A stretch of DNA of 64,000 nt from Minisyncoccota bacterium (GTDB lineage Bacteria; Patescibacteriota; Minisyncoccia; Minisyncoccales; GWA2-38-27). Both the position numbers and the translations under genes were made by a program. Positions 4,463-37,014 of the stretch are shown piece after piece. How positions within the stretch are numbered: position 1 is the stretch's first letter; each line of letters opens with the position of its first letter. The notes beneath the pieces were generated by a model. The model had not been told where the DNA came from, searched no databases, and worked only from the letters and a program-made list of their open reading frames with translations. The DNA is taken from NCBI GenBank assembly GCA_028687715.1, contig JAQTZP010000004.1:25751-89750 (forward strand). The letters run 5' to 3'.

Positions 4463-6001
4463 TCAACTCAGCTTTTTCTGCTGGTATTCTTCTAACTTTC
4501 CCATAAAATCGCTCTTTCTAAATCTTTCAATCCATTTCTTAATAAGTCCGTAAGCTTCATAGCACAATTTTTCTCTTATCAGGCTTTTAACAGAAAGCTC
4601 TTTGCCTCTTAGGAAAAAATCAATAGGGAAAATAATAAAAGTTCTAAAAAGAAAGTGTAAAAGACGAAAAGGACGCCAGTAAAACCATCTCATAATTTTA
4701 GCAGGAATGCCCTGAAGCTCTCTAGTTGTCATGCCATCGGGGATAAAACAAACATAATTTCCGTCGTAATATCTCCAAGGGACAATATCCTGGGGGAAAA
4801 TCCTGGCTTGAGCTTCAAGCCTTTTCCTTAAATCCGTTCCTGCGCCAGGTCCCGGTAAAAGCACCTGAATGCTGTTGGGACGAGCCCTGCGGATAAACTT
4901 TTTAAAACGCTTAACTATTTCTTTTGGACTAAGCTCGCATTTCTTTCCTTTTAAAGGATATCCAGCTATAAACATCAGATGAACCCAGAAGTATCTCTTT
5001 ATCATCGCAACCCATTCAACCATCTTAGAAGAAAGGTACCCTTTCCTCATAGATTTCAAGTCTTCGTCAATCGGAGATTCAGCGCCGATACTGACAAACC
5101 TTACACCTGCCTTTTTCATTGCCTCTAAAAGCCTGTTATTTTCAGCTGCCTCCAAGCGTATCTGAACTTGAAAATTAAAAGAATCTCCATATTCCTTGGA
5201 AATCATTTCAAAGAATTCTAAGGTACCTTTTAAATCTTCTTCTAGGCGATCATCTACAATAAAGAAGTTCTTTGCCCTCCTTGTATCATTAAGCCATTGG
5301 ACTATATTGAAGAGATGCCTGCTCGTAGAGAAGCGTGGCTCGCCCTTTACGCTGCAGAATTCGCAGTTTCGGCTGCATCCCCTGATTCTGCTGATAGGAT
5401 ATACTTTTATCCTAGCGTATCTGACAAGATTAAAATCCGGATAAGGAAGTAAACCTATGTCAGAAACCTTATTCTCCTTAAAATAGGTAGTAGTCATTTT
5501 TTGGTCCTGGATAAAAGAAATGCCCCCAACAAGACTTAACAGTTCTTTATTGAGTAAAACAGGAAGAATTTGAGCTATGGCCTCTTCGCCGTCGCCATGG
5601 ACAACTATATCAACATTATGACTTAATGTTTCTTCCGGCAGATAATGAGCGTGCCAGCCGCCGGCAATTGTCGGTACCTTCATTCTTTTATACAATCCTG
5701 CTAATTCCCAAACTCTTTCAATAGTACTGCTTAATCCAGTGTAAAAACCAACAGCTTGAGCCGGGTTTTCTCTTTGCAAAACCTCATGATCTGGCAGTCC
5801 TTGGACATTCCTCGGACCGCGGTAGTTATTCTCATCAATTACTTCTGCCCGCCAGCCCCAAACTTTATTGGCGCAAGTTGCAACCATTACAGGCCCCAAA
5901 GCAGTTGTTTTTTTAGCCATCCGAGTAAATACATTAACTTCTGGAAAAGCTGGAATTATTAGTCTGAACAATCTTAAACTCTCATTGAGATCAGCTGTCA
6001 T
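4463..6001 (-). CDS. B12-binding (class B) radical SAM protein
   Basis: CSRNCEFC is a CxxxCxxC motif, with an N-terminal B12-binding-like domain. By eye this gene is GC-richer than its neighbours. Confidence 0.75.
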   Translation of the reverse strand: MTADLNESLRLFRLIIPAFPEVNVFTRMAKKTTALGPVMVATCANKVWGWRAEVIDENNYRGPRNVQGLPDHEVLQRENPAQAVGFYTGLSSTIERVWELAGLYKRMKVPTIAGGWHAHYLPEETLSHNVDIVVHGDGEEAIAQILPVLLNKELLSLVGGISFIQDQKMTTTYFKENKVSDIGLLPYPDFNLVRYARIKVYPISRIRGCSRNCEFCSVKGEPRFSTSRHLFNIVQWLNDTRRAKNFFIVDDRLEEDLKGTLEFFEMISKEYGDSFNFQVQIRLEAAENNRLLEAMKKAGVRFVSIGAESPIDEDLKSMRKGYLSSKMVEWVAMIKRYFWVHLMFIAGYPLKGKKCELSPKEIVKRFKKFIRRARPNSIQVLLPGPGAGTDLRKRLEAQARIFPQDIVPWRYYDGNYVCFIPDGMTTRELQGIPAKIMRWFYWRPFRLLHFLFRTFIIFPIDFFLRGKELSVKSLIREKLCYEAYGLIKKWIERFRKSDFMGKLEEYQQKKLS

Positions 6002-6821: not shown

Positions 6822-7781
6822 TTATATCTCTGATATCAGCATATCAAGAGCTGTTTCTGGATTAACTCTTCCGGTCTTAGCATTTAAATCTGCCTCAAAA
6901 ATCTTTTGGTAGATTTTTTTTAATTCAGGAAAGCTGAATCTTTGAGACTGAAAATAACTCTTTTTCGCCACATAAGGATGAAGCTTTGTTTTTGAAAGAA
7001 TTATGTCATAAGGGCTGCGGTTTTCAACAAGCTCTTTGACCAGCAGAATATTGCGGAATTGATAATTTATCATTGACAGAAGATACAAAGGGGAATCGCC
7101 TTTATCCAAATGATTCTTTATTAATCTCAAAGCCTGCTTTTTGTTCTTCTCTGAAACAGCGTCAATGGTTTTAAATATATCAGCTTCTATTTTCGACCTT
7201 ACCATTAAATCTACATCTTCTGCGTTTACCTCTTTTAAATCGCAGAAAGCGGCTAATTTATGGATTTCACTGGCAAGCCTCCATAAATCATTGCCCGCGA
7301 GATTAATAATTCTCTCTAAAACCATATGGTTAATTTTTAACCCGTATCTTTCAAACTCCTTTATAACCCATAATCTAAGCTTTTGGCCCGACAAAGGAAC
7401 AAACTCCTGGCATTTGGCGCTCTTTTGAAGAAGTTTAAAAACTTTATCTTTTTTATCTATATCATTTTCTTCATATATTACTATTATGTCATCTGTTTCA
7501 ATAAACTTATCAGCCTGCTCTAAAAAAGAACTCTTAAACTTCTGGTCTTTTGAAGGATTTATTAAAACCAAAAGCTTCTTTTGCTTAAAAATAGAGATTT
7601 GTTTAATTTCATCAACCAAATTGTATAAATTTTCATTATAGTTCTCTGAAAAATCAAAATGCTTTAAGTTTAGCCCGCATTTGCAGCTTTTTTTATACCT
7701 GCTGATTATCTCTGTTAATTTCCTTTTCATTCGATATGTATCTTTTCCGTAAAGAAAATAAATCATAATAGTTTTTGGCAA
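6822..7781 (-). CDS. holA: DNA polymerase III delta subunit-like protein
   Basis: Length of about 320 aa and an N-terminal IYFLYGKDTY pattern typical of HolA clamp-loader delta subunits. Sequence similarity is weak. Confidence 0.5.
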   Translation of the reverse strand: MPKTIMIYFLYGKDTYRMKRKLTEIISRYKKSCKCGLNLKHFDFSENYNENLYNLVDEIKQISIFKQKKLLVLINPSKDQKFKSSFLEQADKFIETDDIIVIYEENDIDKKDKVFKLLQKSAKCQEFVPLSGQKLRLWVIKEFERYGLKINHMVLERIINLAGNDLWRLASEIHKLAAFCDLKEVNAEDVDLMVRSKIEADIFKTIDAVSEKNKKQALRLIKNHLDKGDSPLYLLSMINYQFRNILLVKELVENRSPYDIILSKTKLHPYVAKKSYFQSQRFSFPELKKIYQKIFEADLNAKTGRVNPETALDMLISEI

Positions 7782-11655: not shown

Positions 11656-11725
11656 AATTAAAAGATTGACTATTTATTTTAATTAAGCTAAATTAAACTT
11701 AATCAGTTAATTAATTTTAATACAA

Positions 11726-13042
11726 ATGGCAGAAATCAAAAAGATTACCAAGGAAATATCTATTGATGGAATTTTAGCAGATGATATAAAAAAGGAAATA
11801 GAGAGTGTTTCTGATTTTAAAGAAAAGATTAAAAAAAGCCTAAATAAAAATGTAAGCGATTTGGTTGAAATTATTTTAACAGCATCTTTTTATCTTGACG
11901 CCTCTGATATTCATTTAGAGCCGAGCCAAAAAAAAACAGACTTTAGACTAAGAATAGACGGAGTGCTTCATGATGTATTCTCTTTTTCTCCAGATGAGTA
12001 TAAAAAGCTTCTCTCAAGAATTAAGCTTCTGTCAAAATTAAAGCTTAATATAACAGCCAAGCCCCAGGACGGCCGATTTTCTGTTTTAATAAAAGACGCT
12101 TCTATTGAAATAAGGACATCGTCAATACCGGCAGAGTACGGAGAATCCCTTGTTTTAAGAATCCTAAACCCGAAATGGGTGGTGGAAATGGAGGATTTGG
12201 GCTTAAGAAAAGATTTAATGGAACTATTTAAAAAGGAAATAGAAAAACCTAATGGGATGATAGTCTGCACCGGGCCTACCGGTTCTGGAAAAACAACAAC
12301 TCTCTATGCTTTTTTAAAGAAGATTTACGTTCCCGAGATAAAAATCATTACAATTGAAGACCCTATTGAATACCATCTAAAAGGAGTTTCTCAAACTCAG
12401 GTTGACTCCTCAAGAGGATATGATTTTGCCAACGGATTAAGGGCTATAGTCCGTCAGGATCCTGATGTTATTTTAGTCGGAGAAATAAGGGATTTAGAAA
12501 CCGCTCAAATATCTCTTCAAGCCGCCTTAACCGGACACCTTGTTTTAAGCACTATTCACACCAATGACGCCTCAGGCACAATATCAAGATTTCAAGCCTT
12601 AGGGGAAAAACCCTCAAACATTGCTCCTGCCTTAAATCTTGCCATAGGCCAAAGGCTGGTTAGAAAACTCTGTCCTAAATGCCAGGTATCTAAAAAAATC
12701 AAGCCTGATGATTTTAAGAAAATAAAGAACGAGCTGAAAAACCTTCCCAAGTCAGTAGAAATCCCGAAATTAAGCCCTTCTATGAAAATAAATTATGGGA
12801 AAGGGTGCAAATACTGCAATTTTACCGGATTTAAGGGCCGGGCAGGAATCTTTGAGGCTTTTTTGATTGACAATGAAATGGAGAAATTCATTCTGTCATC
12901 TCCTTCTATAAATGAAATCAAACAAAAAGCAGTTGAAAAAGGAATGGTTCTAATGAGGCAGGATGGGTTTATAAAAGTATTATCAGGCATAACCACAATA
13001 TCTGAAATAGAAAGAGTTACCAGCGAGGAAGAATCTTTGTAA
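11726..13042 (+). CDS. pilB: Type IV pilus / type II secretion assembly ATPase (PilB/GspE family)
   Basis: Walker A GPTGSGKTTTL; Asp box and Walker B (VGEIRD); His box LVLSTIHTND; C-terminal tetracysteine CPKCQ...CKYC. Confidence 0.85.
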   Translation: MAEIKKITKEISIDGILADDIKKEIESVSDFKEKIKKSLNKNVSDLVEIILTASFYLDASDIHLEPSQKKTDFRLRIDGVLHDVFSFSPDEYKKLLSRIKLLSKLKLNITAKPQDGRFSVLIKDASIEIRTSSIPAEYGESLVLRILNPKWVVEMEDLGLRKDLMELFKKEIEKPNGMIVCTGPTGSGKTTTLYAFLKKIYVPEIKIITIEDPIEYHLKGVSQTQVDSSRGYDFANGLRAIVRQDPDVILVGEIRDLETAQISLQAALTGHLVLSTIHTNDASGTISRFQALGEKPSNIAPALNLAIGQRLVRKLCPKCQVSKKIKPDDFKKIKNELKNLPKSVEIPKLSPSMKINYGKGCKYCNFTGFKGRAGIFEAFLIDNEMEKFILSSPSINEIKQKAVEKGMVLMRQDGFIKVLSGITTISEIERVTSEEESL

Positions 13043-13206: not shown

Positions 13207-14241
13207 ATGAAAAATTTGTCAAGACCACCCTTTCTTGCCGGCTCTGACGCTCTGACCGAAGAAGAAAAAAACCTTGACCTTGCCTTAAGGCCTAAAAATT
13301 GGGACAGCTATATCGGCCAGGATAAGATTAAAAGAAATATAAAGATAATAATTGAAGCTGCCAAAAAGAGAAACGAAGCGCCTGAACATCTTCTTTTTTA
13401 CGGAAACAGCGGTCTGGGAAAAACAAGCCTGGCCCATCTCATTGCCAAAGAAACAGGCTCTAATATCCGAGTCACCTCGGGTCCGGTAATAGAAAAAGCA
13501 GGAGACCTTGCTGCGATTCTAACCAATCTTTCAGAAAAAGATATTCTTTTTATTGATGAACTTCACAGGCTTAATAAGCTCTGCGAGGAAATAATATATC
13601 CTGCAATGGAGGATTATAAGTTGAATATTGTACTGGGAAAAGGACCCATGGCAAGAACAATGGAATTAAAACTCCCTCATTTTACCATAATCGGAGCCAC
13701 AACAAGACTAGGCCTTATATCAGCCCCTTTAAGAAATAGGTTCGGAGCAACCTTTCAGCTTAGCTTTTACCAAAAAGAAGATATAGAGAAGATTATAATA
13801 AATTCAAGCAGAATTCTAAACATAAAAATAGAGCCTGAAGCAGTAAAGATTATCGCCAGACGCTCCAGGCTTACCCCTCGAGCCGCCAACAGGCTATTGA
13901 AAAGAGTGAGAGACTTTGCCCAGGTTGAAGGACAGGGAATAATTACTGCCCCAAACGCTGAAAAAGCTTTAACTCAACTGGAAATAGACCAAATGGGGCT
14001 TGAATCTGGAGACAGAAAAATCTTAGAAGCAATCATTGATAAGTTTCAAGGAGGTCCTGTCGGACTCCAAACCTTGGCGGCAGCCACTTCAGAAGAAGAA
14101 GGCACTATTTTAGATATCTATGAACCCTATCTAATGCAGATAGGCTTTATTGAAAGAACTCCCAGAGGAAGAATGGCTACTAAATATGCCTATGAGCATT
14201 TTGGGATAAAATACAAAGGCCCTCAAAACTCATTGATTTAA
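13207..14241 (+). CDS. ruvB: Holliday junction ATP-dependent DNA helicase RuvB
   Basis: LRPKNWDSYIGQ; Walker A GNSGLGKTSLA; a sensor/arginine finger; and a winged-helix C-terminus. Confidence 0.9.
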   Translation: MKNLSRPPFLAGSDALTEEEKNLDLALRPKNWDSYIGQDKIKRNIKIIIEAAKKRNEAPEHLLFYGNSGLGKTSLAHLIAKETGSNIRVTSGPVIEKAGDLAAILTNLSEKDILFIDELHRLNKLCEEIIYPAMEDYKLNIVLGKGPMARTMELKLPHFTIIGATTRLGLISAPLRNRFGATFQLSFYQKEDIEKIIINSSRILNIKIEPEAVKIIARRSRLTPRAANRLLKRVRDFAQVEGQGIITAPNAEKALTQLEIDQMGLESGDRKILEAIIDKFQGGPVGLQTLAAATSEEEGTILDIYEPYLMQIGFIERTPRGRMATKYAYEHFGIKYKGPQNSLI

Positions 14242-15428
14242 TGAAAAGATATCTTATTATAATAATCTTTGCCATAGCTCCTTTTGACGTCTTGGGAGCT
14301 AATTTTTTAGATGTGTCTATCAACGAAATATGCTGGATGGGAACAGAAATATCAGCCAATGATGAATGGATTGAACTTTACAATAACACCAACAACACCA
14401 TAAATCTTGAAGGATGGGTTTTAAAATCAGAGGATGACAGCCCAGAGATAAATCTAACCGGCGCTATCAATCCTTATGGCTATTATCTAATGGAAAGAAC
14501 AGACGACAATACAGTGCCTTATATATCTGCTGACGTAATTTATAAAGGAGGCTTGTCAAACAGCGGTGAAAGTTTAAAGCTCTATGACAATTCCGGAAAT
14601 CTAATTGACGAAGCTGATTGCAAAGACGGCTGGCCGGAAGGAGATAATGCTAAAAAACTAACAATGGAAAGGACAGATGATTCCAACTGGCAGACAAGCC
14701 AGAATACAAATGGAACCCCAAAAGCAAAAAACAGCCAGAAAGAAATAAATGCAGAGACTATAACTCCAAACAATTTGGAACAAATAACCGATATGCCGAT
14801 CATAAGGGAAGAAACCGAAACAACTTACCCGGGCGGAATATTATTTAATGAAATTCTTCCATCTCCTGAAGGAAAAGATGATACCGAAGAATGGATTGAA
14901 ATATTCAATCAGAATAACTTTGAAGTAAGCCTTTACAACTGGAAAATAAAAGACAATGAAGGGAAAACTACCGAATATATCTTTGACAGCGAATCAAAGA
15001 TATCTCCTTTGGGATATCTAGTATTGAAAAGACCTAAAACAAAAATCATCTTAAACAATGACATTGATAATCTTGTTCTCATCAACCCAATTAATGAAAT
15101 TATAGACTCTGTATCTTATGAAAAAGCGCCCCAGGGGAAATCATACAACAGAGTTTCATCTAACTGGATCTGGAGCAAGAGCCTGACTCCTGGCTCAAAA
15201 AATATCATTGTGAATGAAGAAAAAAGCACTGATTCTTTAAATAAAACTCTAGATAAAAAAGAGTTTGAGTCAAGTAATAATGATAATAAAACTGCTGAGA
15301 TAAAAGAGAAGCTAATGCCCTATGTTTCCAATAAATTTAGCTTTCTAATTGCTTTTTTAACTGCGCTCTTTTCAGCAGTGATAATTATATTTCTTAAGAA
15401 AAGCCTCTCTAAGCGTGAAGATATTTAA
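14241..15428 (+). CDS. Lamin-tail-domain (LTD) protein with a signal peptide, two LTD repeats and a C-terminal transmembrane anchor
   Basis: Two copies of the NEIxW...EWIELYN...LEGWxL pattern (INEICWMGT...EWIELYNNTNNTINLEGWVL and LFNEILPSPEGKDDTEEWIEIFNQ...NWKIKDNEG). N-terminal hydrophobic signal and C-terminal helix FLIAFLTALFSAVIIIFL. Confidence 0.65.
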   Translation: MKRYLIIIIFAIAPFDVLGANFLDVSINEICWMGTEISANDEWIELYNNTNNTINLEGWVLKSEDDSPEINLTGAINPYGYYLMERTDDNTVPYISADVIYKGGLSNSGESLKLYDNSGNLIDEADCKDGWPEGDNAKKLTMERTDDSNWQTSQNTNGTPKAKNSQKEINAETITPNNLEQITDMPIIREETETTYPGGILFNEILPSPEGKDDTEEWIEIFNQNNFEVSLYNWKIKDNEGKTTEYIFDSESKISPLGYLVLKRPKTKIILNNDIDNLVLINPINEIIDSVSYEKAPQGKSYNRVSSNWIWSKSLTPGSKNIIVNEEKSTDSLNKTLDKKEFESSNNDNKTAEIKEKLMPYVSNKFSFLIAFLTALFSAVIIIFLKKSLSKREDI

Positions 15429-15492: not shown

Positions 15493-18400
15493 TTAAAAAG
15501 GAGGTATTTCAATCCATTCTGGAGGAAGAAGAGTCATTCCTATAGGTACATCAATAGCCAGAGAGCAATCCCTGGACAAAGAATCGGTAACCATTAGAAC
15601 AACCTCTTTGGAACCTTCGGAATTAAACTTAATATTTGCGGGATTAGGACTAGTAGAACTCGCAGGAGTTCCGCTTTCAAAAGTCCATAAATAATTACAA
15701 GGACCTGAAGGACAAGTAGTTCCTGCGCTGAAAAAATCAGTATTTTCACCAACATTAGGATTTGAAGGATCCCAGGTAAATGAGGGACAGGGATATTCAG
15801 CTATCGAAGGAATGGTTGAGCTTGCCCAAGGAGAGTCTATAGGTCCGTTAGTATCCCAAACCATTACTCTCCAGTAATAATTAGTGCTGAAATTAATAGA
15901 TTGAGTAGCATAAGAATTTGAACTGCTTTGTACTTTATTGGTGTCAATTATTAGGTTGTTAAAACCCTCGTCAGTTGCAACCTGAACCTGATAGGCTGAT
16001 TGAAGATCGCCTTCGTCAGGATCAGAATATGTCCAAGAAAAAGCTACTGAAGGAACAGCATCGCAACAATCGGTAGCGCTGGGATTAAAGCTGATATTAG
16101 AAGGAGCATTAGGAGGATTATTAGACGGCTCTCCTTCACATCTACAATTTATACATTGCTGATATGGAAAACATAGATTTAAGCCCGGCTCTCCGCACTC
16201 CTCACCTGCATCTCTTATTCCGTCTCCGCAGCAGCAGTCTTCATCGCTAGAACACTCATCAGGAAGCTGTGATTTTGCTGATAATAAACATGCTATCATT
16301 CCGTTTGAAAAAGTACAAATTTTGCTTTTGCCTTCGCAATCTTCATAAGAGAAACATTGATTGCTTCCTTCTCCTGATACAGAAACGCAAGAATTACTGC
16401 TGTCGCATTCTAAGTGCTGTTTATCGCAGTCATTATTTGATAAACATTCATTTTTTCCCTCTCCGGGTTGAGGAACGCAAGTCGTGCCTACGCATTCATA
16501 ATGAGAGCCATCGCACCCTGAATCATCTAAGCACTTGTCTTCTCCTCCGCCTGACACAGAAACGCACCTATTGGCACTGCAGTCTAAATGTGTCTCGCCG
16601 CAATCGCTGTTTGAAAAACATTCATCAGAGCCTTCTCCTGAAACTAAATTACAGATGTTTACTCCACAAGCCCTGTGTTTATCATCTGTTCTGCAAATAG
16701 TAGAATCAGAACATTCATCTGGCCCTTGATCCATTACTGCAATGCAGTATTCAGCATAACAGATGTTATGGCTTCCCCAATCCTGGAAGCTTACTATCCC
16801 TCCCCCTTCACCAGCACAGGATTCAGGACCCTTAGAAGCAGAAGGGATTGATGAGATTTGAACGCTTGAGCCGATTTCTCCGGCTGAACCATTATTTGAA
16901 GGCGGAATGAACTTAATTGAAAAGTTTTCAGCAGAATAATTTGAACCTCCAAGCAAAGGATCTTTTGTCCTGCAGGAATTGAGTCCTGAATAAGAACAGC
17001 AATAAGGAGAATCAACAGGGCACTCAACTCCGTAATCCCAATAAGGATAAGTACCTGAATAAGCGCAGAAAGAATCAGCGCGAGGAAGATCTAGGACGGA
17101 AGCGCCCTGCAACCCACCTGCTCCCCCTGCTCCTGGGTTAAGCTGACCTTGAATAATATTTATATTAGTTAGTTGTATCGTACCGGCATTTCCTCCTTTG
17201 CCTCCAATTCCTCCGTTCCCAGGCTGATTTATGGAACTTGATTGTCCTGTTCCTCCTCTTCTGCCTATGCCGCCGCTAGCATAAAAGTTTTTTAAAATAG
17301 AGATATCAAGCGGGCTGTCTATTAAAATACTTCCTCCATCTCCGCCGCTTGCTCCTGACTGACCGCCATAGGAAGAAAAACCTGTTTGAGCAATTTCAAC
17401 TACTCCGCTTGTTCGAGATATTCCTGAGGCAACCTCTTCCGGGCTTAATACTCTTGTCTGGCAAGGAGTCTGAAGATTAGGCCCTCCTGATTTTGCTATA
17501 TTAATAAGTTCGGCTCCGCTTTTTGGATTAGTGCAGTACCAAGGATAAGAGCTGTAATCTCCGTCTCCTGTATCTCCGCCGTCTCCTCCTTTAATTTCTG
17601 CTGTAATGTTTTCAATAGGGTCATCAGTAGGCATCGGCTTTAAAGTTATATTTCCTCCAGCTCCTCCAGCGCCTGATACTTCAGCTACTTTTATCTCTTT
17701 TACTGCTTTATCTCTCCAGCCGGTTAAATCGCAGTTTCCAGTATGGTTATTGTAAATATCAAAAGGCGTTGCCATAACATTATAATCACCACTTTCTCCT
17801 CCTTTGCCCCCATTGCTTTTAAGAACTAAACTTTTAAAACAATGTATCCTGCTTGCACTTACTGTGATACTTCCTCCAATTCCTCCTGTTCCTCCTTGAC
17901 CCCCTGAACCTCTTTCATACATTGTATGAGTTACTGGTCCTTGATAGTAAATTCCGCCAACAGAGCAGTAATTACCTCCTGCGCCTATTCCTCCTCGAGA
18001 ACCATTCCCGCCGTTAGACTTCAAATCAAGAATATTAGTTCCTGACGCCCACTGGATCCTTGGACTTGTAACTGATATGTTTCCTCCATTTCCTCCAGAA
18101 ACTCCGTCTTGACCATCTGTTCCGTTGTAATATTCATGGGTTTGTTCTCTACAAAACGCATCTGTATCAGAAATAAAACTTCCAGTTGCAGGATCTAGAC
18201 TCACCCCTTCTTTTAAATACCATAAAGAGCCGTAGGGGCTTGGGTCTGAAGGAGTAAAACCAGAAGTATCTGCTATAAGGGAACGGCCCCAACCATTTGG
18301 CGCTGTTCCTTCTATCCTATAATTTGAAACTAAATTAACATCCCCCCCGTTGGGAGCAAAAGCATATCTGGCCCTGGCATAAATAGGGTTTTCTATTAAA

Positions 18401-19758
18401 AGAGTAGGTTCTAAGGAAAGATTAGTGTTTGAAGCTTCAATCCAGATATTTCCAGCAGACTGACCCGGAGGGTTTATAAGTTCGCCCGTAAATGCTGTTA
18501 CATCAAAATTATCGCTTGTTATGCTTCCTTTAACTTGAACCCAGGTTCCTTTTATATTAACATTATTAGGATCGGCTGCAGTATGAAATCCTGTAGAATT
18601 AATTCCAGAAGAACCTATAAAAACTATTCCATTGGGAGCATACAAAGAAATCTTTCCAACTATCCCAGCGCCGCTGTATCCTGTAGCATAAAGATTGCTA
18701 TTCTGATAGCCGCTGTAAGCACTGTTATTAATCCCTGAACCTACTCTTACTCCTCTCTGCTGACCAGTTCCGTTTGCTTGCAGTATAATTTTTCCACTAC
18801 TTTTATAATCCTTGCAGAATCTTCTGAATTTATAAGTGACAGGATTTAATTGGCAAAGATTTCCGTAATCGCATTTCTCTTCCTTAGTACTTTCTTCACA
18901 GGCGCTGTAGGTATAGATATTGTCAGTTATCCAGATTCTCTCATTAGCCTTAATTACAATATTACTAGGCTCAAGCCCCTGGGCAAATAAATTATTGGCA
19001 TATAAAGAGTTAATAAACATATCAAAAGGGGCAGGCAGAATTGTTATCTGACCCGCCCTGCCAAAGCCAGCAGTAGAAAAACCAAATACCGGCGCAAAAA
19101 CCCAGCCATATATTGATTGAGAAGATAAGGACCCTGCTTTAATATCTTTTCCATAAATAGAGATATTTCCTCCGTCTCCGCTAATACCGGCACAACTTAT
19201 ATTCCCTACAGAAACTATCTTCCCTTTTAAAATCACATTACCTCCATTGCCTTGATAAACTACGGCGCTTAACTCTTGGCTAGGCTGATTAAAGATATCC
19301 CCTCCGATTACCAGTCCCTCATTGGTTCTAAAAGTAATATTTGACGGAATAAATGAAACTCCTGAATACTTATAAATAGTAACGCTTTTATACTCTATCA
19401 AATCATAGGCAAATAAGTTTATGTCCGTTAAACTAGGCCTAGTTATCCGTAAACCTTCATCCGGGGAGAAATAAATCTTTTTTGTCCCCTTGATCGCAAA
19501 AGAACTAGCGGTTAATTTTACCTTATCCAAATCATTGCCGCTCCCATCTCTTAAATCAAAAGTTAAACCTGCATTAATCACATTATCAACAAAACTCTTA
19601 TTAACGCAGATAGAATCATCAGCGTCTATTTCCGAACAGGTTGAACTTTGATTAACTAAAGTGCAATTGCAAGATGCGGCAGAAACTGAACCTCCTTTTA
19701 TGGTTATTATAAAAAAGAAAAGAGCAAAGATTATTATTTTTAGCTTTTTATTTTTCAT
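15493..19758 (-). CDS. Giant secreted/surface protein (1421 aa) with Gly-rich repeats, Cys-rich modules and C-terminal FN3/PKD-like domains
   Basis: Signal peptide MKNKKLKIIIFALFFFIITIKGGSVSAA. Many GGxGGxG/SGGNGGN repeats suggestive of a beta-helix/beta-roll. About six tandem Cys-rich units of about 30 aa (CxxVSGxGxxxCxxxxDCxxxHLxC). FN3-like (YYWRVMVWD) and PKD-like segments near the C-terminus. Confidence 0.6.
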   Translation of the reverse strand: MKNKKLKIIIFALFFFIITIKGGSVSAASCNCTLVNQSSTCSEIDADDSICVNKSFVDNVINAGLTFDLRDGSGNDLDKVKLTASSFAIKGTKKIYFSPDEGLRITRPSLTDINLFAYDLIEYKSVTIYKYSGVSFIPSNITFRTNEGLVIGGDIFNQPSQELSAVVYQGNGGNVILKGKIVSVGNISCAGISGDGGNISIYGKDIKAGSLSSQSIYGWVFAPVFGFSTAGFGRAGQITILPAPFDMFINSLYANNLFAQGLEPSNIVIKANERIWITDNIYTYSACEESTKEEKCDYGNLCQLNPVTYKFRRFCKDYKSSGKIILQANGTGQQRGVRVGSGINNSAYSGYQNSNLYATGYSGAGIVGKISLYAPNGIVFIGSSGINSTGFHTAADPNNVNIKGTWVQVKGSITSDNFDVTAFTGELINPPGQSAGNIWIEASNTNLSLEPTLLIENPIYARARYAFAPNGGDVNLVSNYRIEGTAPNGWGRSLIADTSGFTPSDPSPYGSLWYLKEGVSLDPATGSFISDTDAFCREQTHEYYNGTDGQDGVSGGNGGNISVTSPRIQWASGTNILDLKSNGGNGSRGGIGAGGNYCSVGGIYYQGPVTHTMYERGSGGQGGTGGIGGSITVSASRIHCFKSLVLKSNGGKGGESGDYNVMATPFDIYNNHTGNCDLTGWRDKAVKEIKVAEVSGAGGAGGNITLKPMPTDDPIENITAEIKGGDGGDTGDGDYSSYPWYCTNPKSGAELINIAKSGGPNLQTPCQTRVLSPEEVASGISRTSGVVEIAQTGFSSYGGQSGASGGDGGSILIDSPLDISILKNFYASGGIGRRGGTGQSSSINQPGNGGIGGKGGNAGTIQLTNINIIQGQLNPGAGGAGGLQGASVLDLPRADSFCAYSGTYPYWDYGVECPVDSPYCCSYSGLNSCRTKDPLLGGSNYSAENFSIKFIPPSNNGSAGEIGSSVQISSIPSASKGPESCAGEGGGIVSFQDWGSHNICYAEYCIAVMDQGPDECSDSTICRTDDKHRACGVNICNLVSGEGSDECFSNSDCGETHLDCSANRCVSVSGGGEDKCLDDSGCDGSHYECVGTTCVPQPGEGKNECLSNNDCDKQHLECDSSNSCVSVSGEGSNQCFSYEDCEGKSKICTFSNGMIACLLSAKSQLPDECSSDEDCCCGDGIRDAGEECGEPGLNLCFPYQQCINCRCEGEPSNNPPNAPSNISFNPSATDCCDAVPSVAFSWTYSDPDEGDLQSAYQVQVATDEGFNNLIIDTNKVQSSSNSYATQSINFSTNYYWRVMVWDTNGPIDSPWASSTIPSIAEYPCPSFTWDPSNPNVGENTDFFSAGTTCPSGPCNYLWTFESGTPASSTSPNPANIKFNSEGSKEVVLMVTDSLSRDCSLAIDVPIGMTLLPPEWIEIPPF
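16300..16720. repeat. Divergent tandem repeats of about 90 nt inside the giant protein gene, encoding the Cys-rich modules
   Basis: GAAACGCA-containing units of similar length recur on the plus strand. Boundaries are approximate. Confidence 0.4.
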
Positions 19759-29716: not shown

Positions 29717-30064
29717 TTATTTACTTTTGAAAAGATTTGCTTTTTTAAAGAGAATATCAATTCTTTTATCAAGCTCCCAAAAATCATTAATCTTCAATCC
29801 GGGCCTTATAATCATTATGCAGTCAAAACCTTTTTTAATCCCATCTAGCCTATTGCTTATTATCTCGCTTATTTTCCTTCTAAGACTATTCCTCATTACC
29901 GCTTTCTTGGAGAATTTCTTGCTTACAATAAAGCCAAACCTGGTACTTTTAAGATTGTTTCTATTTATTTTAAGGTATATAAAGTCTTCTTTATACCCCT
30001 GGCCTTTTTTAAAAACCTCCTCAAAATCCTTTATTCTTTTAAGCCTGTTTAGTTTCGGGAGCAT
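29717..30064 (-). CDS. rnpA: Ribonuclease P protein component
   Basis: Matches the RNR motif region (FGFIVSKKFSKKAVMRNSLRR) and lies between yidC and rpmH. Confidence 0.8.
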   Translation of the reverse strand: MLPKLNRLKRIKDFEEVFKKGQGYKEDFIYLKINRNNLKSTRFGFIVSKKFSKKAVMRNSLRRKISEIISNRLDGIKKGFDCIMIIRPGLKINDFWELDKRIDILFKKANLFKSK

Positions 30065-30079
30065 GAAAATATTTACCCT

Positions 30080-30214
30080 TTAAACGCTTAGTTTTTTTCT
30101 TCCTTTTTTTCTTCTTCTGGATAAAACCTGCCTTCCCTTTTTTGTTTTCTGACGGACTAAAAACCCGTGAGTCCTTTTTCTTTTTTTTCTTTTTGGCTTA
30201 TAAGTAAAAGACAT
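30080..30214 (-). CDS. rpmH: 50S ribosomal protein L34 (not in the supplied ORF track; 44 aa)
   Basis: The minus-strand translation [44 protein letters not shown] matches the L34 consensus (..RTHGFR.RM.T..GR.VL.RRR.KGRK.L). Confidence 0.8.
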
Positions 30215-30430
30215 ATTCTAAAATTATTATTAATTACTGTTTGCTAATATAGTAGTATAATATTAAAATTAATCAGGGTCAACAAATCTGTTTTTTTAGA
30301 ACCAAGAATTATCCATATTTAATCACCAACTTATCCACAGCTTGTTAACAAATAGTGGATTTCTCTGTTTATTTTAGTTTTGTTTTGACTTGTGTTAAAA
30401 TGAAATAATCGTAATTTTATTCCCATTATT
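30215..30430. promoter_or_regulatory. oriC-proximal region upstream of dnaA, with DnaA boxes and the dnaA promoter
   Basis: Perfect TTATCCACA at 30331-30339; TTATCCATA at 30309-30317; reverse-orientation AATCCACTA at about 30352-30360; extended -10 TGTTAAAAT before dnaA. Confidence 0.7.
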
Positions 30431-31780
30431 ATGACAAACGAAGAGCTTTGGCAAGGCGTTCTTGCCCAAATTCAATTGAATATCTCCCAGGCAAACTTTG
30501 CTACTTGGTTTAAAAATACTTCTATTGTTTCTCAAAAAGAAGGCAGGTTGTTAATCTCTGTGCCTAATTCATTTGTCAGAGAATGGCTTGAAAATAAATA
30601 CAATAAGCAGATATTTAAAATAATCCATAATTTAAACGAAGAGATTAAGGAAATCAAATACAGCGTTGGGAAGGCCTCGGAAAAAGCTGTTAAAAAGGCT
30701 TCTATAGACCTGCTTGAAAGCGACCAGCTTGAGTTCCAAGAACTTAAAATAGACAAAGAAACAAACCTTAATCCCAAATACATCTTTGATTCTTTTATAG
30801 TCGGCCCCTTCAATGAACTGCCCCACGCAGCCGCCTCAGCAGTAGCTGAAAATCCAGGATACATCTATAACCCTTTATTCATTTACGGAGGAGTGGGTCT
30901 TGGAAAAACTCATTTGCTTCAGGCAATAGGCAATGAAGTTGCAAAGAACTTTAAAACAAAAAAAGTAAGATATATTTCTTCTGAAAAATTCACTTCAGAA
31001 GTTGTATTGTCTATTAAAAACCATCAAATTGACTCTTTTAAATCAAAATACAGAGCCATTGACGTCTTAATAATAGATGATATTCAGTTTTTAGCAGGAA
31101 AAGAAAAGACTCAAGAAGAATTCTTCCATATTTTCAACGTCTTATACGAGAATAATAAGCAGATTATCCTTTCATCTGATTGTCCACCCAAAGCAATCCA
31201 CTCGTTAGCCGAAAGATTAAGATCCAGATTTGAAGGAGGAATGACAGCGGATATAAGCAATCCTGATTTTGAAACCAGAGTTGCTATTTTAAAAACAAAA
31301 GCTCAGGAAAAAAAGGTTGATTTTCCAATTGAAGTATATAATTATCTTGCTTCTTCTATTCAAAAGAACATCAGGGAATTAGAAGGAGCCTTAAACAGGC
31401 TTATTGCTTATCAAAAAATAAACAACAAGCAGCTGGATTTGGAAACCATAAAGATTATTCTTAAAAACGTTCTAATGAGTCCGGCTAAGGTTATCACCCC
31501 AAAGAAAATCATCCAAACCGTGGCTGAATTCTATGATTTAAAAGAAAAAGACATTTTAGACTGCTCCAGAAAAAAAGAGATTGTAAGACCGAGACAAATA
31601 GCAATGTATTTATTAAGAGAAGAATTAAAAAGCTCTTTCCCTTTTATCGGAAGAAAATTCCAGGGCAAAGACCATACTACTGCCATTCATTCGTATAAAA
31701 AAATAGCTAAAGAAATTGAAAAAGATAAAAAACTGGAAGAAGAAATAAGTTTAATTAAAGAAAGGGTTTTAAGCTCTTAG
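30431..31780 (+). CDS. dnaA: Chromosomal replication initiator protein DnaA
   Basis: AAA+ Walker A GGVGLGKTHLL; sensor motifs; C-terminal DnaA-box-binding domain (RPRQIAMYL...TAIHSY). Confidence 0.95.
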   Translation: MTNEELWQGVLAQIQLNISQANFATWFKNTSIVSQKEGRLLISVPNSFVREWLENKYNKQIFKIIHNLNEEIKEIKYSVGKASEKAVKKASIDLLESDQLEFQELKIDKETNLNPKYIFDSFIVGPFNELPHAAASAVAENPGYIYNPLFIYGGVGLGKTHLLQAIGNEVAKNFKTKKVRYISSEKFTSEVVLSIKNHQIDSFKSKYRAIDVLIIDDIQFLAGKEKTQEEFFHIFNVLYENNKQIILSSDCPPKAIHSLAERLRSRFEGGMTADISNPDFETRVAILKTKAQEKKVDFPIEVYNYLASSIQKNIRELEGALNRLIAYQKINNKQLDLETIKIILKNVLMSPAKVITPKKIIQTVAEFYDLKEKDILDCSRKKEIVRPRQIAMYLLREELKSSFPFIGRKFQGKDHTTAIHSYKKIAKEIEKDKKLEEEISLIKERVLSS

Positions 31781-31983
31781 AAGATGAGGAAAAAATGTTG
31801 ATAAGATTGTGGATTTAAAAGTGATAAAAATACAATAACTTTATCTATTAATTTATCCACAATTTATCTAATGTTTTTTAAAGGGAAAATTAGATATTAA
31901 TCCCCAATAAAACCTATATTAAAAACCTAAATTAAAACTTAACTTAATAATAATAAATTTTAATTAAAAACTAATAATTAATT
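31781..31983. promoter_or_regulatory. Candidate oriC core (dnaA-dnaN intergenic region) with DnaA boxes and an AT-rich unwinding region
   Basis: Perfect TTATCCACA at 31853-31861; degenerate boxes TTGTGGATT (31808-16), TTATCTATT and TTATCTAAT; about 100 nt of more than 85% AT sequence immediately before dnaN. Confidence 0.7.
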
Positions 31984-33114
31984 ATGAGATTATCAATTTT
32001 ACAAGAAAAACTAAAAGAAGGATTAAATATTGTTGAAAGAGTTTCTTCTAAATCTTTATCTCTTCCTATTTTAAACAATATCTTGATTTCTACTGAAAAG
32101 AATTTCTTAAATTTAGCTGCAACTGATTTAGAGGTGGGAATAAATTGGTGGGTCTTGGCTAAAATTGAAAAAGAAGGAAAAATTACAATTCCCAGTAGAT
32201 TATTTTCAAGTTTTATTAATCTTTTACCTAATAAAAAGATAGATATAAAGGAGGAAAAGAATAATATATTTATTGAGTGTGAGAATTATAATACTCAAAT
32301 TAAAGGAATTTCAGCTGATGAGTTCCCTATTATTCCTAAAATAAATGAAGGCGAATCAGTGTCTTTTGATATTAATTTATTTTGTCAAAGCGTTAACCAA
32401 GTAGTTGATATTCCGGTATTATCAACTACTAGACCTGAAATTTCAGGAGTTTATTTCTATTTTAATAAGAATTTAATAACAATTACTGCCACTGATAGTT
32501 TTAGATTGGGCGAAAAAAAGATATTTCTTAAAAACAGCTTTAATTTAAAAAAAGAATATTCTTTAATTATCCCCCAAAGAGCTGTAAAGGAAATTATTAA
32601 TATATTCGGAGAAAAAAAAGGAGAATTAAAGGTATATTTTTCAACAAACCAAATAATGTTTGAGTCTTTTATGGAAGAAACAGAGCATTCTCAGATTCAG
32701 CTTGTTTCCCGCTTAATTGAAGGAGAATATCCGAATTATAAGGAGATTATACCTTCAAAATATGCAACTCAAATTATCTTGGATAAGAATGAGTTTTTAA
32801 ACCAAATAAAAGCAGCCAGCTTGTTCAGCGGCAAGGCTAATGAAGTTAAAATAAAATCAGGATCTGGCGATAAAACAATAGAAATTTCCAGTCAAAGTTC
32901 AGAACTTGGGAGTAATAAATCTTTAATTCCTGCTAAAATCAAAGGAGAATCAGTAGATATTTCGTTTAATTATAGGTTCCTATTAGATGGTATTTTAAAT
33001 ATTAAAAGCTCAGAAATTATCTTTGAGCTAAACAGCGATTCAGGTCCCGGGGTATTAAAACCAGTAGGAGATGATAGTTATATCTACGTAGTTATGCCGA
33101 TAAAGGCAAGTTGA
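31984..33114 (+). CDS. dnaN: DNA polymerase III beta sliding clamp
   Basis: Length of about 376 aa with three-domain clamp-like periodicity, directly downstream of dnaA. Confidence 0.85.
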   Translation: MRLSILQEKLKEGLNIVERVSSKSLSLPILNNILISTEKNFLNLAATDLEVGINWWVLAKIEKEGKITIPSRLFSSFINLLPNKKIDIKEEKNNIFIECENYNTQIKGISADEFPIIPKINEGESVSFDINLFCQSVNQVVDIPVLSTTRPEISGVYFYFNKNLITITATDSFRLGEKKIFLKNSFNLKKEYSLIIPQRAVKEIINIFGEKKGELKVYFSTNQIMFESFMEETEHSQIQLVSRLIEGEYPNYKEIIPSKYATQIILDKNEFLNQIKAASLFSGKANEVKIKSGSGDKTIEISSQSSELGSNKSLIPAKIKGESVDISFNYRFLLDGILNIKSSEIIFELNSDSGPGVLKPVGDDSYIYVVMPIKAS

Positions 33115-34938: not shown

Positions 34939-37014
34939 TTATTTTTTAAATAAATCTCTTAATTTTTTAGGTTTACTTTTTGCGGGGGGCTGGGTTTGTT
35001 TTTTTTCAATTTCAACGCCTGGCGGTAGAATTATTCTTGATATTACCCCTTTTTCTTTTTCTTCTTTCCATCGTTGCAATATTTCGGGTTTAATTGTGAA
35101 CATGCTTTGACCCGCCTGGCTGGAAAAATAATTTTTAAGAGTTGGACTTATATTGGCTCCAGTATTAATTCTTTCTTCTATCTTCGAGGCTGCATTTTTT
35201 CCAAGATTTTCAATAAGCTTATCTATATGTTTACTAGTAGCATTAATTAATATTGCATCCATTACTTCGGTGCTTTCTATTGCTTGACTAGATATCTTTT
35301 CGTAATCAGCAGGTTTCATTTTTTTAATTGTTTCCATCATGTCGGCGCCTTCAAGCATATGAGGTATTGCCTTGTCAATAACCTTATTAGACTGCCATTT
35401 CTTAGCCGTTTCTCTTATTTTCTTAATTTCTGCATCAGTTATATTCCCTTTTTTAACAAAGTCATTAAAGTTTCCATCTTCTATAATTTGATTTAATATT
35501 CCTACTTTATCAGTTTCAATCTTTGCTTTGCGGTAGGCGGATAATTGGGTTTCTGCTGTTTTTCCTTTTATGCTTTCTTGAGTTTTTTTAATCTGTTCTC
35601 TTTGGCTTTCAGTCAAGCCTGGGCCCAAAGGAGTTGCTATTGCCCTTCCAAGAGCAACAAAAGGAGTGCTTACAGTTCTTTTAGCCCAGCCTCCAATTCC
35701 GGTTTGGTTTTGTCCCCACTTTCCTGCAGTAGCCATTCCTGTCGCTGCTTTCCTAACCGCTGCTGGCACCAATTGTTTTACTTTTCCTGCCGCATACTTT
35801 CCTGCTGCTCCTGCGGCCTTCCCCCCGGCCCATCCAGCAGCTTGCTTGCCCCTTCTTTTAAATGAGTCTATTATCGCGCCAGAGCCTATAGCAGAGGTTT
35901 TTAGCCCAAATACCAGTCCAAGGCCTAGAAAAGCTAAAGAGACGAAATAGCTGATAATTCTGGCCTTAAAGCCAACAACAGCAGTGCTTCCAAAATTTAT
36001 ATCCGGTGAGCTAGAATTTATATTAGGCCATATGTTTATAAAATAGTTTGCCATAGAAAAGAAGAAGGCGCAGGTTATTCCAATGGTGGCCCATTGGACA
36101 AACTGCGTCCACCATGTATTCCAATACTGCCTTGTATTGGGCAGAATATAGAGGGCAAAGGCAATTGGGGATAAGATAACCAGTATCATTATGGCAAAGT
36201 ATCTGAGCAGAAAAATAGCGGCAAATAACAGATAAATAAAGAAGGATATCAGGTATACAAAAATTAAGACAAATAATTGAATAATACCTGTTTTAAATGT
36301 TTCATAATTCCAATTGCTCCACATTTCATATGAAAGACAGTCTGGAAGACTGTATATTGGCCTGCCTTGATAATAATAACAGGCGCTTTGCTGTTCTATT
36401 ATTCCTGATTTCTGAAAAAGGAAATAATCCATAGTAATATTTGAGGCATCAACAATAAGTCCGCATATAACAGGAGCAAAGTTTATAAGCAGAGCAATAA
36501 CAATAAAAGTGTATAAGGTTTTTTTAGTCCTGTAGTTTTCCAGTCTTAGCATGGTTGCCAGTCCAATAAACACTAAAACTAAAGCAAGCACCATATTAAT
36601 AAGACCTCTGGTATATCCCAGCCCTATTGCGACTATAGGATTAGTGCCTGGATTGGTAAGCTGCATTTCTAAAAAGCCAGGACTTATTACCCATTGTACC
36701 AGCGAGATGCCGAGGTCTTTCAACATTTCAGCTATTTTAGCAAACAGCCAGAAAAACATAGCGAAAAGATACATTATCCATGCTTCAATAAAGCTAAGGG
36801 ATTTAGTTTCAGACACTTTTTGATTATTCAAATAGTCTGCATAAGCGCCTGTTGGCATAACTCCGCCTGGTCCTGGGACAATGGGAAAAACAGTGCCTGT
36901 GCCAGGATCAACAACCTGAGCATTAGCAAATGAAGACAGAACAAGGATTGCGCCTATTAAGCATAAAGAGAAAGAAATAAGAATCTTTTTTGGGTTTTTC
37001 AATTTCTTAAACAT
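34939..37014 (-). CDS. Large polytopic membrane protein with a signal peptide and a Gly/Ala/Lys-rich C-terminal tail; possible VirB6/TrbL-like component
   Basis: At least 8 predicted transmembrane helices in the N-terminal 400 aa; the C-terminus carries GKQAAGWAGGKAAGAAGKYAAGK repeats. The topology resembles TrbL/VirB6, but there is no motif-level proof. Confidence 0.35.
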   Translation of the reverse strand: MFKKLKNPKKILISFSLCLIGAILVLSSFANAQVVDPGTGTVFPIVPGPGGVMPTGAYADYLNNQKVSETKSLSFIEAWIMYLFAMFFWLFAKIAEMLKDLGISLVQWVISPGFLEMQLTNPGTNPIVAIGLGYTRGLINMVLALVLVFIGLATMLRLENYRTKKTLYTFIVIALLINFAPVICGLIVDASNITMDYFLFQKSGIIEQQSACYYYQGRPIYSLPDCLSYEMWSNWNYETFKTGIIQLFVLIFVYLISFFIYLLFAAIFLLRYFAIMILVILSPIAFALYILPNTRQYWNTWWTQFVQWATIGITCAFFFSMANYFINIWPNINSSSPDINFGSTAVVGFKARIISYFVSLAFLGLGLVFGLKTSAIGSGAIIDSFKRRGKQAAGWAGGKAAGAAGKYAAGKVKQLVPAAVRKAATGMATAGKWGQNQTGIGGWAKRTVSTPFVALGRAIATPLGPGLTESQREQIKKTQESIKGKTAETQLSAYRKAKIETDKVGILNQIIEDGNFNDFVKKGNITDAEIKKIRETAKKWQSNKVIDKAIPHMLEGADMMETIKKMKPADYEKISSQAIESTEVMDAILINATSKHIDKLIENLGKNAASKIEERINTGANISPTLKNYFSSQAGQSMFTIKPEILQRWKEEKEKGVISRIILPPGVEIEKKQTQPPAKSKPKKLRDLFKK

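Follow-up and report, generated by a model that had tools for sequence, protein, structure and literature searches.

The giant gene described here lies in a 64,000-nucleotide stretch of contig JAQTZP010000004.1 from a Minisyncoccota bacterium (assembly GCA_028687715.1); below, the window means the whole of that stretch. The open reading frame (ORF) occupies 15493..19758 of the minus strand and, between its ATG and its stop codon (15493-15495), encodes 1421 residues. As a preliminary description of this DNA had stated, it is the largest gene in the window, the next-longest ORF being 921 aa. The protein is acidic, rich in Gly, Ser, and Asn, and identical to hypothetical protein PHI53_02460 of a Candidatus Pacebacteria metagenome-assembled genome (MAG), on a 107.7-kb contig, which places it in the Patescibacteria, or candidate phyla radiation (CPR), group, in line with the episymbiotic lineages that the preliminary description had mentioned. 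Its most informative feature, absent from that description, is a conserved C-terminal tail that forms, with the domains before it, a cassette common to Patescibacteria.

The window is a housekeeping region close to the probable replication origin. Around the giant gene it carries ruvA, holA, fpg, a gene for a T2SSE-type ATPase, ruvB, a gene for a lamin-tail domain (LTD) protein, and, beyond the giant gene, yebC and ruvC; further genes are tyrS, a PBP1a gene, yidC, dnaA, and dnaN. Table 1 lists the features of the giant protein and its convergent LTD neighbor.

Table 1. Features of the giant protein and of the neighboring LTD protein, in window coordinates
Feature	Residues	Coordinates	Strand	Remarks
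Signal-peptide-like N-terminus	1-27	19678..19758	-	MKNKKLK, hydrophobic core, GGSVSA/AS
Family-defining core	28-999	16762..19677	-	N-terminal cap plus all-beta, probably beta-helical body; 10 invariant Cys
Five Gly-rich units of ~45-50 aa	548-892	17083..18117	-	GxGGxGGxGGx-I-x-[IV], hairpin, [SA]xGGxGxxG
Four-Cys module array, five complete and one partial	1000-1177	16228..16761	-	Consensus HxEC-x4-C[VI]xVxGxGx[DN]xC-x5-C
Single CGDGxxxxGEEC...C module	1177-1207	16138..16230	-	Resembles Myxococcus-type Cys-rich repeat; motif by sequence
FN3-like Ig domain Ig_Rha78A_N (PF25788)	1212-1318	15805..16125	-	Pfam
PKD-like domain	1319-1405	15544..15804	-	Sub-threshold Pfam plus PKD-positive relatives
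C-terminal tail MTLLPPEWIEIPPF	1409-1421	15496..15534	-	Stop codon directly after
LTD protein: signal peptide, two LTD domains, C-terminal membrane anchor		14241..15428	+	Convergent neighbor, syntenic context

A conserved C-terminal tail and its distribution

The giant protein ends in LPPEWIEIPPF, one form of a 12-residue consensus, LPLPEWKEIxPF or P[KE]WxEIxPF, located at the stop codon. Ten full-length family members, found through the N-terminal core alone, all end in a variant of PP[KE]WxEIxP[F], with W1415 and E1417 invariant and P1413, I1418, and P1420 each kept in nine of the ten. In this unbiased set no other part of the last 210 residues is conserved as strongly as the tail. It is predicted to be coil, with an AlphaFold confidence (predicted local distance difference test, pLDDT) of about 78.

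A search for the back-translated pattern P[KE]WxEIxPF plus stop codon, in one genome per species (596 Gb) and therefore limited to strict-motif tails, returned 50 loci, against about 13 chance matches expected by our own estimate from the information content of the pattern, equal base frequencies being assumed. Thirty-three of the loci hold ORFs, of up to 2294 aa, that are long or cut short by the contig end, on contigs of 29-47% GC. The other 17 are unrelated pattern matches, a number in line with chance; 16 are ORFs of at most 77 codons or are interrupted by stop codons. Fifteen of the 17 come from named genomes of other phyla or from an unclassified MAG, and two, in-frame TGG or interrupted, from Emticicia. 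Patescibacteria labels are attached to 28 of the 33 ORFs (Saccharibacteria, Staskawicz-, Wildermuth-, Nealson-, and Portnoybacteria, Parcubacteria), four are labeled only "bacterium", and one is labeled "Pacearchaeota", yet its neighbors are bacterial (nusB, rnc) and syntenic with Patescibacteria loci. At this last locus (L039, contig DAOSAR010000003.1, Candidatus Pacearchaeota archaeon) the tail-bearing gene is followed by rpmF-nusB-rnc-rpsP in the same order as at loci L003, L016, and L018, and L004 shares nusB-rnc-rpsP with it; the contig is probably mislabeled or mis-binned.

The same scan of metagenome contigs yielded at least 120 stretches; among the 81 matches that were read, at least 71 proved to be tail-bearing ORFs of this kind; viral contigs scanned for the tail pattern gave none. 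The residues L-P-L at positions -12 to -10 are conserved although they lie outside the search pattern, and all 11 of the complete tail-bearing ORFs in the genome set have a signal-like start. BLASTP aligns the cassette of the giant protein (residues 1211-1421) with the C-termini of 28 tail-bearing ORFs at 23-38% identity over the full cassette length, higher locally in shorter matches, and core residues 28-993 match none of the same 28. Judged from these sequences, the cassette appears on at least 100 predicted Sec-type exported proteins with differing N-terminal parts. Two tail-bearing genes stand in tandem at locus L074 (865 and 417 aa, tails at 5875-5904 and 7321-7350 on the plus strand), and L012 and L016 are tail-bearing paralogs on different contigs of one Staskawiczbacteria MAG; a genome can therefore hold several tail-bearing genes. 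Clustering of the tail-bearing proteins by their N-terminal parts was uninformative because extra PKD and FN3 copies join most of them into one cluster. At loci L008, L022, L030, L035, and L047 the N-terminal part carries SDNVxGWAWSxNIGWISF repeats, which have no Pfam or NCBIfam match, are found in many small tail-bearing proteins, and seem to be a further exoprotein repeat of Patescibacteria that no catalog lists.

No NCBIfam or Pfam model covers the tail, the giant protein and six tail-bearing sequences having been compared with the NCBIfam sorting signals at E<=1, and nothing relevant was found in literature on the literal tail motif, on sorting signals, or on PKD cassettes in Patescibacteria. 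The tail is thus undescribed in the databases and literature searched. Word-index protein searches returned two hits for the cassette and five for a 30-sequence tail alignment, such an index being too insensitive for a short, diverged module.

The domains before the tail are the FN3- and PKD-like folds that the preliminary description had proposed, and both are upheld. The FN3-like domain matches Ig_Rha78A_N at E 2e-15 (57.4 bits, gathering cut-off 27.4), aligns to residues 26-104 of rhamnosidase 3w5m, and is conserved throughout the family as well as in most tail-bearing proteins. The next domain scores just under the cut-offs of PKD (PF00801, 21.3 bits versus 23.5) and PKD_4 (PF18911, 21.6 versus 27), aligns to the solved PKD-type chain 2c26_A at E 1e-3, and is modeled at pLDDT 63-87. 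PKD_4 is matched at E<=0.01 (best E 2.8e-14) by 21 of the 30 corresponding segments taken from tail-bearing proteins, each made up of the last 110 residues; the PKD assignment is made because the sub-threshold scores are joined by these clearly PKD-positive relatives.

Export signal

Residues 4-28 are the sole hydrophobic segment of the giant protein (maximum 2.16 in a 19-residue Kyte-Doolittle window) and are followed by VSA/AS. All complete tail-bearing relatives have the same type of N-terminus, and this export-type start agrees with the earlier prediction that the protein is secreted. A lipoprotein was ruled out, there being no lipobox and the residue preceding the first Cys varying among homologs. 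Sortase or anchor motifs, the subject of a check proposed in the preliminary description, were not found: the giant protein contains no LPxTG sequence, and its C-terminus has no hydrophobic stretch, let alone a hydrophobic helix followed by a basic tail.

The glycine-rich head

The core that defines the family contains 150 Gly among 972 residues, so the Gly-rich N-terminal part of the preliminary description (15% Gly) is real. It matches no Pfam family even at E<=10, right-handed beta-helix families (Beta_helix, PbH1, pectate lyase) included, and nothing in NCBIfam or PHROGs; PDB sequences give weak, non-significant matches to Gly-rich segments only. When the whole protein and each of its segments were compared with the same four collections, only the FN3-like and PKD domains were returned.

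Searched exhaustively with HMMER, a set of 1.84 billion representative proteins yielded only 15 relatives of the core, about nine of them full length (1200-1700 aa). A family-alignment search of species-representative genomes found no relative, and a collection of 5.8 billion proteins held none above 37% identity. In all three relatives that could be placed on contigs (loci L001, L053, and L054), the giant gene keeps its position, divergent from yebC-ruvC. Across these three related genomes the giant protein is 33-37% identical, versus 52-74% for the flanking housekeeping proteins; the gene, syntenic yet so much less conserved than its neighbors, is therefore a clade-wide, fast-evolving ortholog. 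Such fast evolution fits a surface-exposed protein.

AlphaFold2 modeling of the N-terminal part, from a shallow four-sequence alignment (the alignments used held four and nine sequences), gave an all-beta structure with a predicted template modeling score of 0.65, 452 residues at pLDDT 70 or better, and high-confidence strands. Foldseek found no significant match in the PDB (best E 0.7, template modeling scores 0.1-0.3), and the list it returned consists almost entirely of right-handed beta-helix proteins: HxuA, EtpA, HMW1, Sf6 tailspike, VacA, EspC, Hbp, and Fap2. The library of viral structures gave no significant match to the head model. A phage origin was rejected, since neither viral contigs nor viral structures match.

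Five Gly-rich units, at residues 548-600, 612-662, 690-735, 795-842, and 843-892, recur in the second half of the core, each of the form GGxGGxIxI ... SNGGxGG. Pairwise comparison by hhalign relates them at probabilities of 68-97% (E 4e-10 to 5e-5), values that the Gly-rich composition inflates. A profile of 35 units from the ten family members, compared with sequences of solved structures, gave non-significant matches, the best to 1udx (E 0.022), 1lnz (0.076), and ObgE and MTG2 (0.17-0.3). Five of the nine best are Obg-family GTPases, with Gly-rich N-terminal domains, and the unit motif PxGGxGGxGGxGGx[IV]x[IVL] recalls the Obg segment PKGGPDGGDGGRGGSVYL, but with matches at E 0.02-0.3 composition is likely the driver. 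As a lead only, the GGxGG runs might form helices of the polyglycine-II type. The 9-mer GGNGGNISV likewise resembles the RTX consensus GGxGxDxUx, but an RTX protein requires its nonapeptides in tandem, with Asp at position 6. The 9-mers of the giant protein stand alone, at intervals of 45-75 aa, and have N, S, or T at position 6, and no Pfam HemolysinCabind match appears at E<=10, so an RTX protein was ruled out. The earlier suggestion of a beta-helix or beta-roll accordingly stays plausible in its first half, through the all-beta model and its best, non-significant, structural matches, and not in its second.

The cysteine-rich stalk

Between head and cassette lie five complete C-x10-C-x5-C-x6-C units, starting at C1005, C1036, C1065, C1094, and C1124, and an incomplete sixth unit at C1157. 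They recur every 29-33 aa, so the preliminary count of six modules of about 30 aa is right as to spacing and tandem order, the sixth being only partial. The units are 38-45% identical as protein and 49-55% as DNA. Where the preliminary description had noted divergent repeats of about 90 nt at the DNA level, Tandem Repeats Finder reports only trivial 9-12-nt repeats in the giant gene and no array of ~87-90 nt; the repeat is therefore too diverged to be detected as a DNA array. The modules match nothing in Pfam or the PDB, their profile gives no meaningful PDB match either, and AlphaFold models them at pLDDT below 50.

Among family members the tandem array occurs in the giant protein only, and the linker between head and cassette differs in every one: it is Pro/Asp/Trp-rich in P0002 and P0004, contains one or two Cys modules in P0003 and P0006, and in the others carries CCDGxDNDxDG or CGNG..GE.C modules. 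Because this segment differs in each relative, comparison of the sequences indicates that the array is a lineage-specific expansion and does not define the family. The same four-Cys module forms arrays in two unrelated tail-bearing Patescibacteria proteins, with at least nine copies at locus L003 (residues 339-600 of an 872-aa ORF) and at least five at L004 (residues 1-160 of a 440-aa ORF), in both directly N-terminal to the FN3-PKD-tail cassette, as in the giant protein. The L003 protein also has a long collagen-like GPGGPGGPG run. After the array, the motif CGDGIRDAGEECGEPG...C is visible at residues 1177-1207, for which no Pfam (E<=10) or NCBIfam (E<=1) match was reported; relatives P0008 and P0011 have CGNG..GE.CD copies at this position. 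By sequence, neither the head nor the stalk module can be assigned to a described family.

A candidate surface fiber with a shared terminal cassette

Taken together, these features make it somewhat more probable than not that the giant protein is a Sec-exported, non-enzymatic surface fiber of a Pacebacteria-type cell. The N-terminal 970 residues would form a Gly-rich, beta-helix-like head stapled by disulfides; being specific to the family and fast-evolving, the head is the part most likely to bind a ligand or host. From the five to six four-Cys modules and the CGDG/GEEC module would arise a spacer, rigid, acidic, and cross-linked by disulfides, that is enlarged only in this lineage. The cassette most likely retains or sorts the protein at the cell surface through a conserved partner and not through a membrane anchor. 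We infer surface retention, binding, and the orientation, head distal and cassette proximal, from sequence features. With its order of Sec signal, large non-enzymatic head rich in beta structure, variable spacer rich in disulfides, Ig-like domains, and lineage-wide C-terminal element, the protein has the plan of a fibrillar surface adhesin. In CPR bacteria, large surface proteins that contain PKD and fibronectin domains have been reported as candidate host-attachment factors (PMC8080830), a published view that the present layout fits. The cell-surface adhesion reading of the preliminary description thus finds support in the export signal, the lack of an enzyme-family match, the all-beta model, the FN3 and PKD domains, and the fast evolution; support is lacking for the beta-roll, and the pairing with the LTD protein reduces to synteny.

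A broader proposal, which we advance tentatively and think less likely than not to be right, is that the PKD domain plus the tail LPLPEW[KR]EIxPF-COOH, usually with an FN3-like domain before it, constitutes an undescribed Patescibacteria-wide C-terminal sorting or attachment signal that has no membrane-spanning segment. Recognition of this signal by a putative conserved partner, possibly a cell-wall component or the minor-pilin tip complex of the type IV pilus, would display dozens of different heads per lineage, the Gly-rich head among them, on the surface of cell or pilus.

Several observations weigh against the surface-fiber reading. The beta-helix assignment lacks a significant structural match, and the last 110 core residues and many Gly loops are modeled at low confidence. 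Three of the ten core-found family members run 3 to 6 residues past the core motif, and P0019, which shares the cassette but is not one of these ten, runs 17 residues past it; a free C-terminal carboxylate is therefore not strictly needed, and PDZ-type recognition of the carboxylate as sole mechanism was rejected. The tail may also be simply a structural latch of this PKD subfamily.

Alternative explanations

The gene neighborhoods of tail-bearing proteins bear on the foremost alternative. Over 105 tail-bearing loci the commonest neighbors are RNase Y, in 19, and the L32-NusB-RNase III-S16 group, in 12-14; such housekeeping neighbors say nothing about the function of the tail-bearing proteins. 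At about 13 of the 105 loci, however, pilin-like genes directly follow the tail-bearing gene on the same strand; they number three or four, carry a prepilin N-terminal methylation motif, and are separated from it by -24, 17, or 22 nt or by one small ORF. The Pfam N_methyl prepilin motif was found in three of the neighbor families, at E 2e-4 to 1e-8, and PilB-like genes recur in eight loci and PilC-like genes in six. The arrangement with pilin-like genes is seen at L017 (1-3781), L027 (5668-8000), L090, L097, L114, and L126; at L017, L027, and L045, ligA and ftsW come next after the pilin-like genes. From gene order, a type IV pilus link is possible for at least one tail-bearing subfamily.

Extended to the giant protein, this would make it a pilus-displayed adhesin whose cassette docks, in the manner of PilY1/PilC, onto the minor-pilin tip of a type IV pilus, with the head at the pilus tip. 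Besides the pilin-adjacent loci, a T2SSE-type ATPase gene 2.4 kb from the giant gene, in the window and at L001 alike, speaks for such a role. Only other tail-bearing genes adjoin pilin-like genes, however; the giant gene has no neighboring pilin gene, and the entire 64-kb window is free of prepilin motifs. Most tail-bearing genes adjoin the housekeeping genes named above, the pilin-adjacent loci may be one orthologous arrangement counted repeatedly, and the giant protein shows no Pfam match or sequence similarity to PilY1 or PilC. We therefore regard a pilus-tip adhesin as unlikely, although it fares better than the other alternatives.

Slightly less probable still is a secreted beta-helix enzyme, a depolymerase of polysaccharide or cell wall that attacks the host envelope with a fold like that of tailspikes or pectate lyases. 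Beta-helices are a common scaffold of glycan-degrading enzymes, and the list of structure matches includes, besides Sf6 tailspike, a phage depolymerase and a GH87 glucanase. Those matches are non-significant (E>=0.7), however, no viral structure matches, and Pfam returns no Beta_helix, pectate lyase, or glycoside hydrolase family at E<=10. The positions invariant across the ten members are Gly, 10 Cys, and, as the only polar residues, R312, E426, D712, and Q839, with no His and a single Asp, Glu, and Arg. Because Gly, Cys, and four polar positions make up the invariant set, the sequences carry no conserved catalytic signature in the head, and the pattern is unlike that of a conserved active site. 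In this respect the preliminary description, which took the protein for a repeat protein and not for a member of a known enzyme family, stands: periodicity is present, and no enzyme family was matched.

A structural coat or S-layer-like protein, covering the cell and having no specific ligand, would account for a single-copy, syntenic, clade-wide gene with an acidic product rich in Gly, Ser, and Asn, and the S-layer protein RsaA does appear in the structure-match list. But the RsaA match is non-significant (E 6.1), the family is very rare, with 15 relatives, whereas coat proteins are usually abundant in metagenomes, and a modular head, stalk, and cassette is typical of fibers and not of lattices. 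We consider a coat improbable.

The weakest alternative is that of the preliminary description, in which the giant protein and the LTD protein form an adhesion or host-interaction pair, the anchored LTD protein serving as a receptor that holds the giant protein or the two acting jointly in adhesion or DNA uptake. Its premises are in part correct. The genes are convergent, 64 nt apart, as had been described; LTD membership is clear, in two stretches (E 4.7e-28, 98.2 bits versus a cut-off of 34.3); a hydrophobic segment at residues 365-385 provides the C-terminal anchor; the convergent LTD gene is found downstream in the window and at two of the three related loci, L001 and L054; and both proteins evolve fast at L001 (45% and 36% identity versus 54-74% for neighbors). 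Yet the whole 20-kb region is syntenic, which gives adjacency little weight, L053 has no LTD gene at this position, the LTD gene lies on the opposite strand from the giant gene with its start codon overlapping the ruvB stop codon, and LTD neighbors do not recur at other tail-bearing loci. In the L001 ortholog (11674-12588, minus strand) a ComEA-like HHH_3 DNA-binding domain replaces the first LTD, which points to DNA uptake. Because the region as a whole is syntenic, the LTD start overlaps ruvB, and the L001 ortholog has HHH_3, we treat the supposed pair as synteny alone, its functional reality being very improbable. The domain content suggests that the LTD protein is a surface DNA receptor, and DNA binding is a more likely role for it than pairing with the giant protein. 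At L053 (8500-10833, plus strand) a 778-aa thioredoxin-domain protein takes the LTD position downstream of the giant gene; it may be relevant to disulfide formation in Cys-rich exoproteins.

Other genes in the window

Further genes of the window have features of their own. The dnaA and dnaN genes lie at 30431-33114 on the plus strand, where the cumulative GC skew of the window also has its minimum, at 30-32 kb; because the two coincide (~30000-32000), a replication origin inside the window, some 11 kb away from the giant gene, is probable. The 921-aa ORF at 42760-45525 (plus strand) stands where the strand composition of the window is most extreme (GC skew +0.37, AT skew +0.37). Its sole domain match is a C-terminal peptidoglycan-binding domain, PG_binding_1, at residues 848-915, and it is probably a second large cell-wall-associated protein. 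A 691-aa ORF at 34939-37014 (minus strand) has no Pfam match at E<=0.001, and a DsbD_2-cupredoxin-HMA membrane protein is encoded at 50103-51620 (minus strand). A promoter and terminator scan was uninformative.

Comparison with known systems

The surface fiber proposed here is closest in plan to the fibrillar adhesins of monoderm bacteria, which likewise have a Sec signal, a large non-enzymatic N-terminal head, a variable-copy stalk of small repeats or Ig-like domains, and a conserved C-terminal element common to many otherwise different proteins. Unlike them, the giant protein lacks LPXTG, a C-terminal hydrophobic segment, and a basic tail; the shared element is instead an FN3-like domain, a PKD domain, and a terminal 12-residue Pro/Trp tail; and the head and stalk module match no described family. 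HMW1, EtpA, HxuA, Hbp, EspC, and Fap2, the nearest, non-significant, neighbors of the model, are long all-beta solenoids with non-enzymatic binding roles. The giant protein differs from such two-partner and autotransporter adhesins in having neither a two-partner secretion (TPS) domain nor an autotransporter barrel, and conserved disulfides and GGxGG loops are features of the giant protein and not of those adhesins. An outer membrane is not known from Patescibacteria.

The tail resembles the LPXTG/sortase, PEP-CTERM, GlyGly-CTERM, and PGF-CTERM systems as a short conserved C-terminal element on many unrelated exoproteins of one lineage, and the cassette resembles the type IX secretion domain in having a C-terminal beta-sandwich domain within the unit. 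It differs in that neither a transmembrane helix nor a basic cluster comes after the motif, and in its Patescibacteria-only range. The giant protein, ending in ...EIPPF with no hydrophobic segment, matches no NCBIfam model for PEP-CTERM, GlyGly-CTERM, or PGF-CTERM, and no type IX C-terminal domain model of NCBIfam or Pfam. Because no hydrophobic helix follows, the tail differs from every described sorting signal. Type IX secretion is not known from Patescibacteria.

PilY1 and PilC find a parallel in some of the tail-bearing proteins (the longest of at least 1621 aa), whose genes stand beside prepilin-like genes, immediately upstream of three or four of them, with stop and start codons that sometimes overlap. 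Sequence similarity is absent in this comparison too, the gene order differs, and the giant gene is not beside pilin genes.

Implications

CPR bacteria are thought to live attached to hosts, and how they display attachment proteins is largely unknown, few of them being cultivated and most of their large surface proteins unannotated. A head that is rare, yet conserved and syntenic in one clade, is a candidate determinant of host specificity, and it is borne on an uncatalogued four-Cys stalk module that changes copy number between lineages. The C-terminal tag is short and easily searched, and it picks out a class of exported proteins across the phylum. Many of the tail-bearing loci are labeled Saccharibacteria, a group with cultivated members. 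If the tag does serve sorting or docking, it would allow the set of proteins displayed on the surface of these bacteria to be defined from sequence alone, and it would point to a display mechanism unlike that of sortase or exosortase systems.

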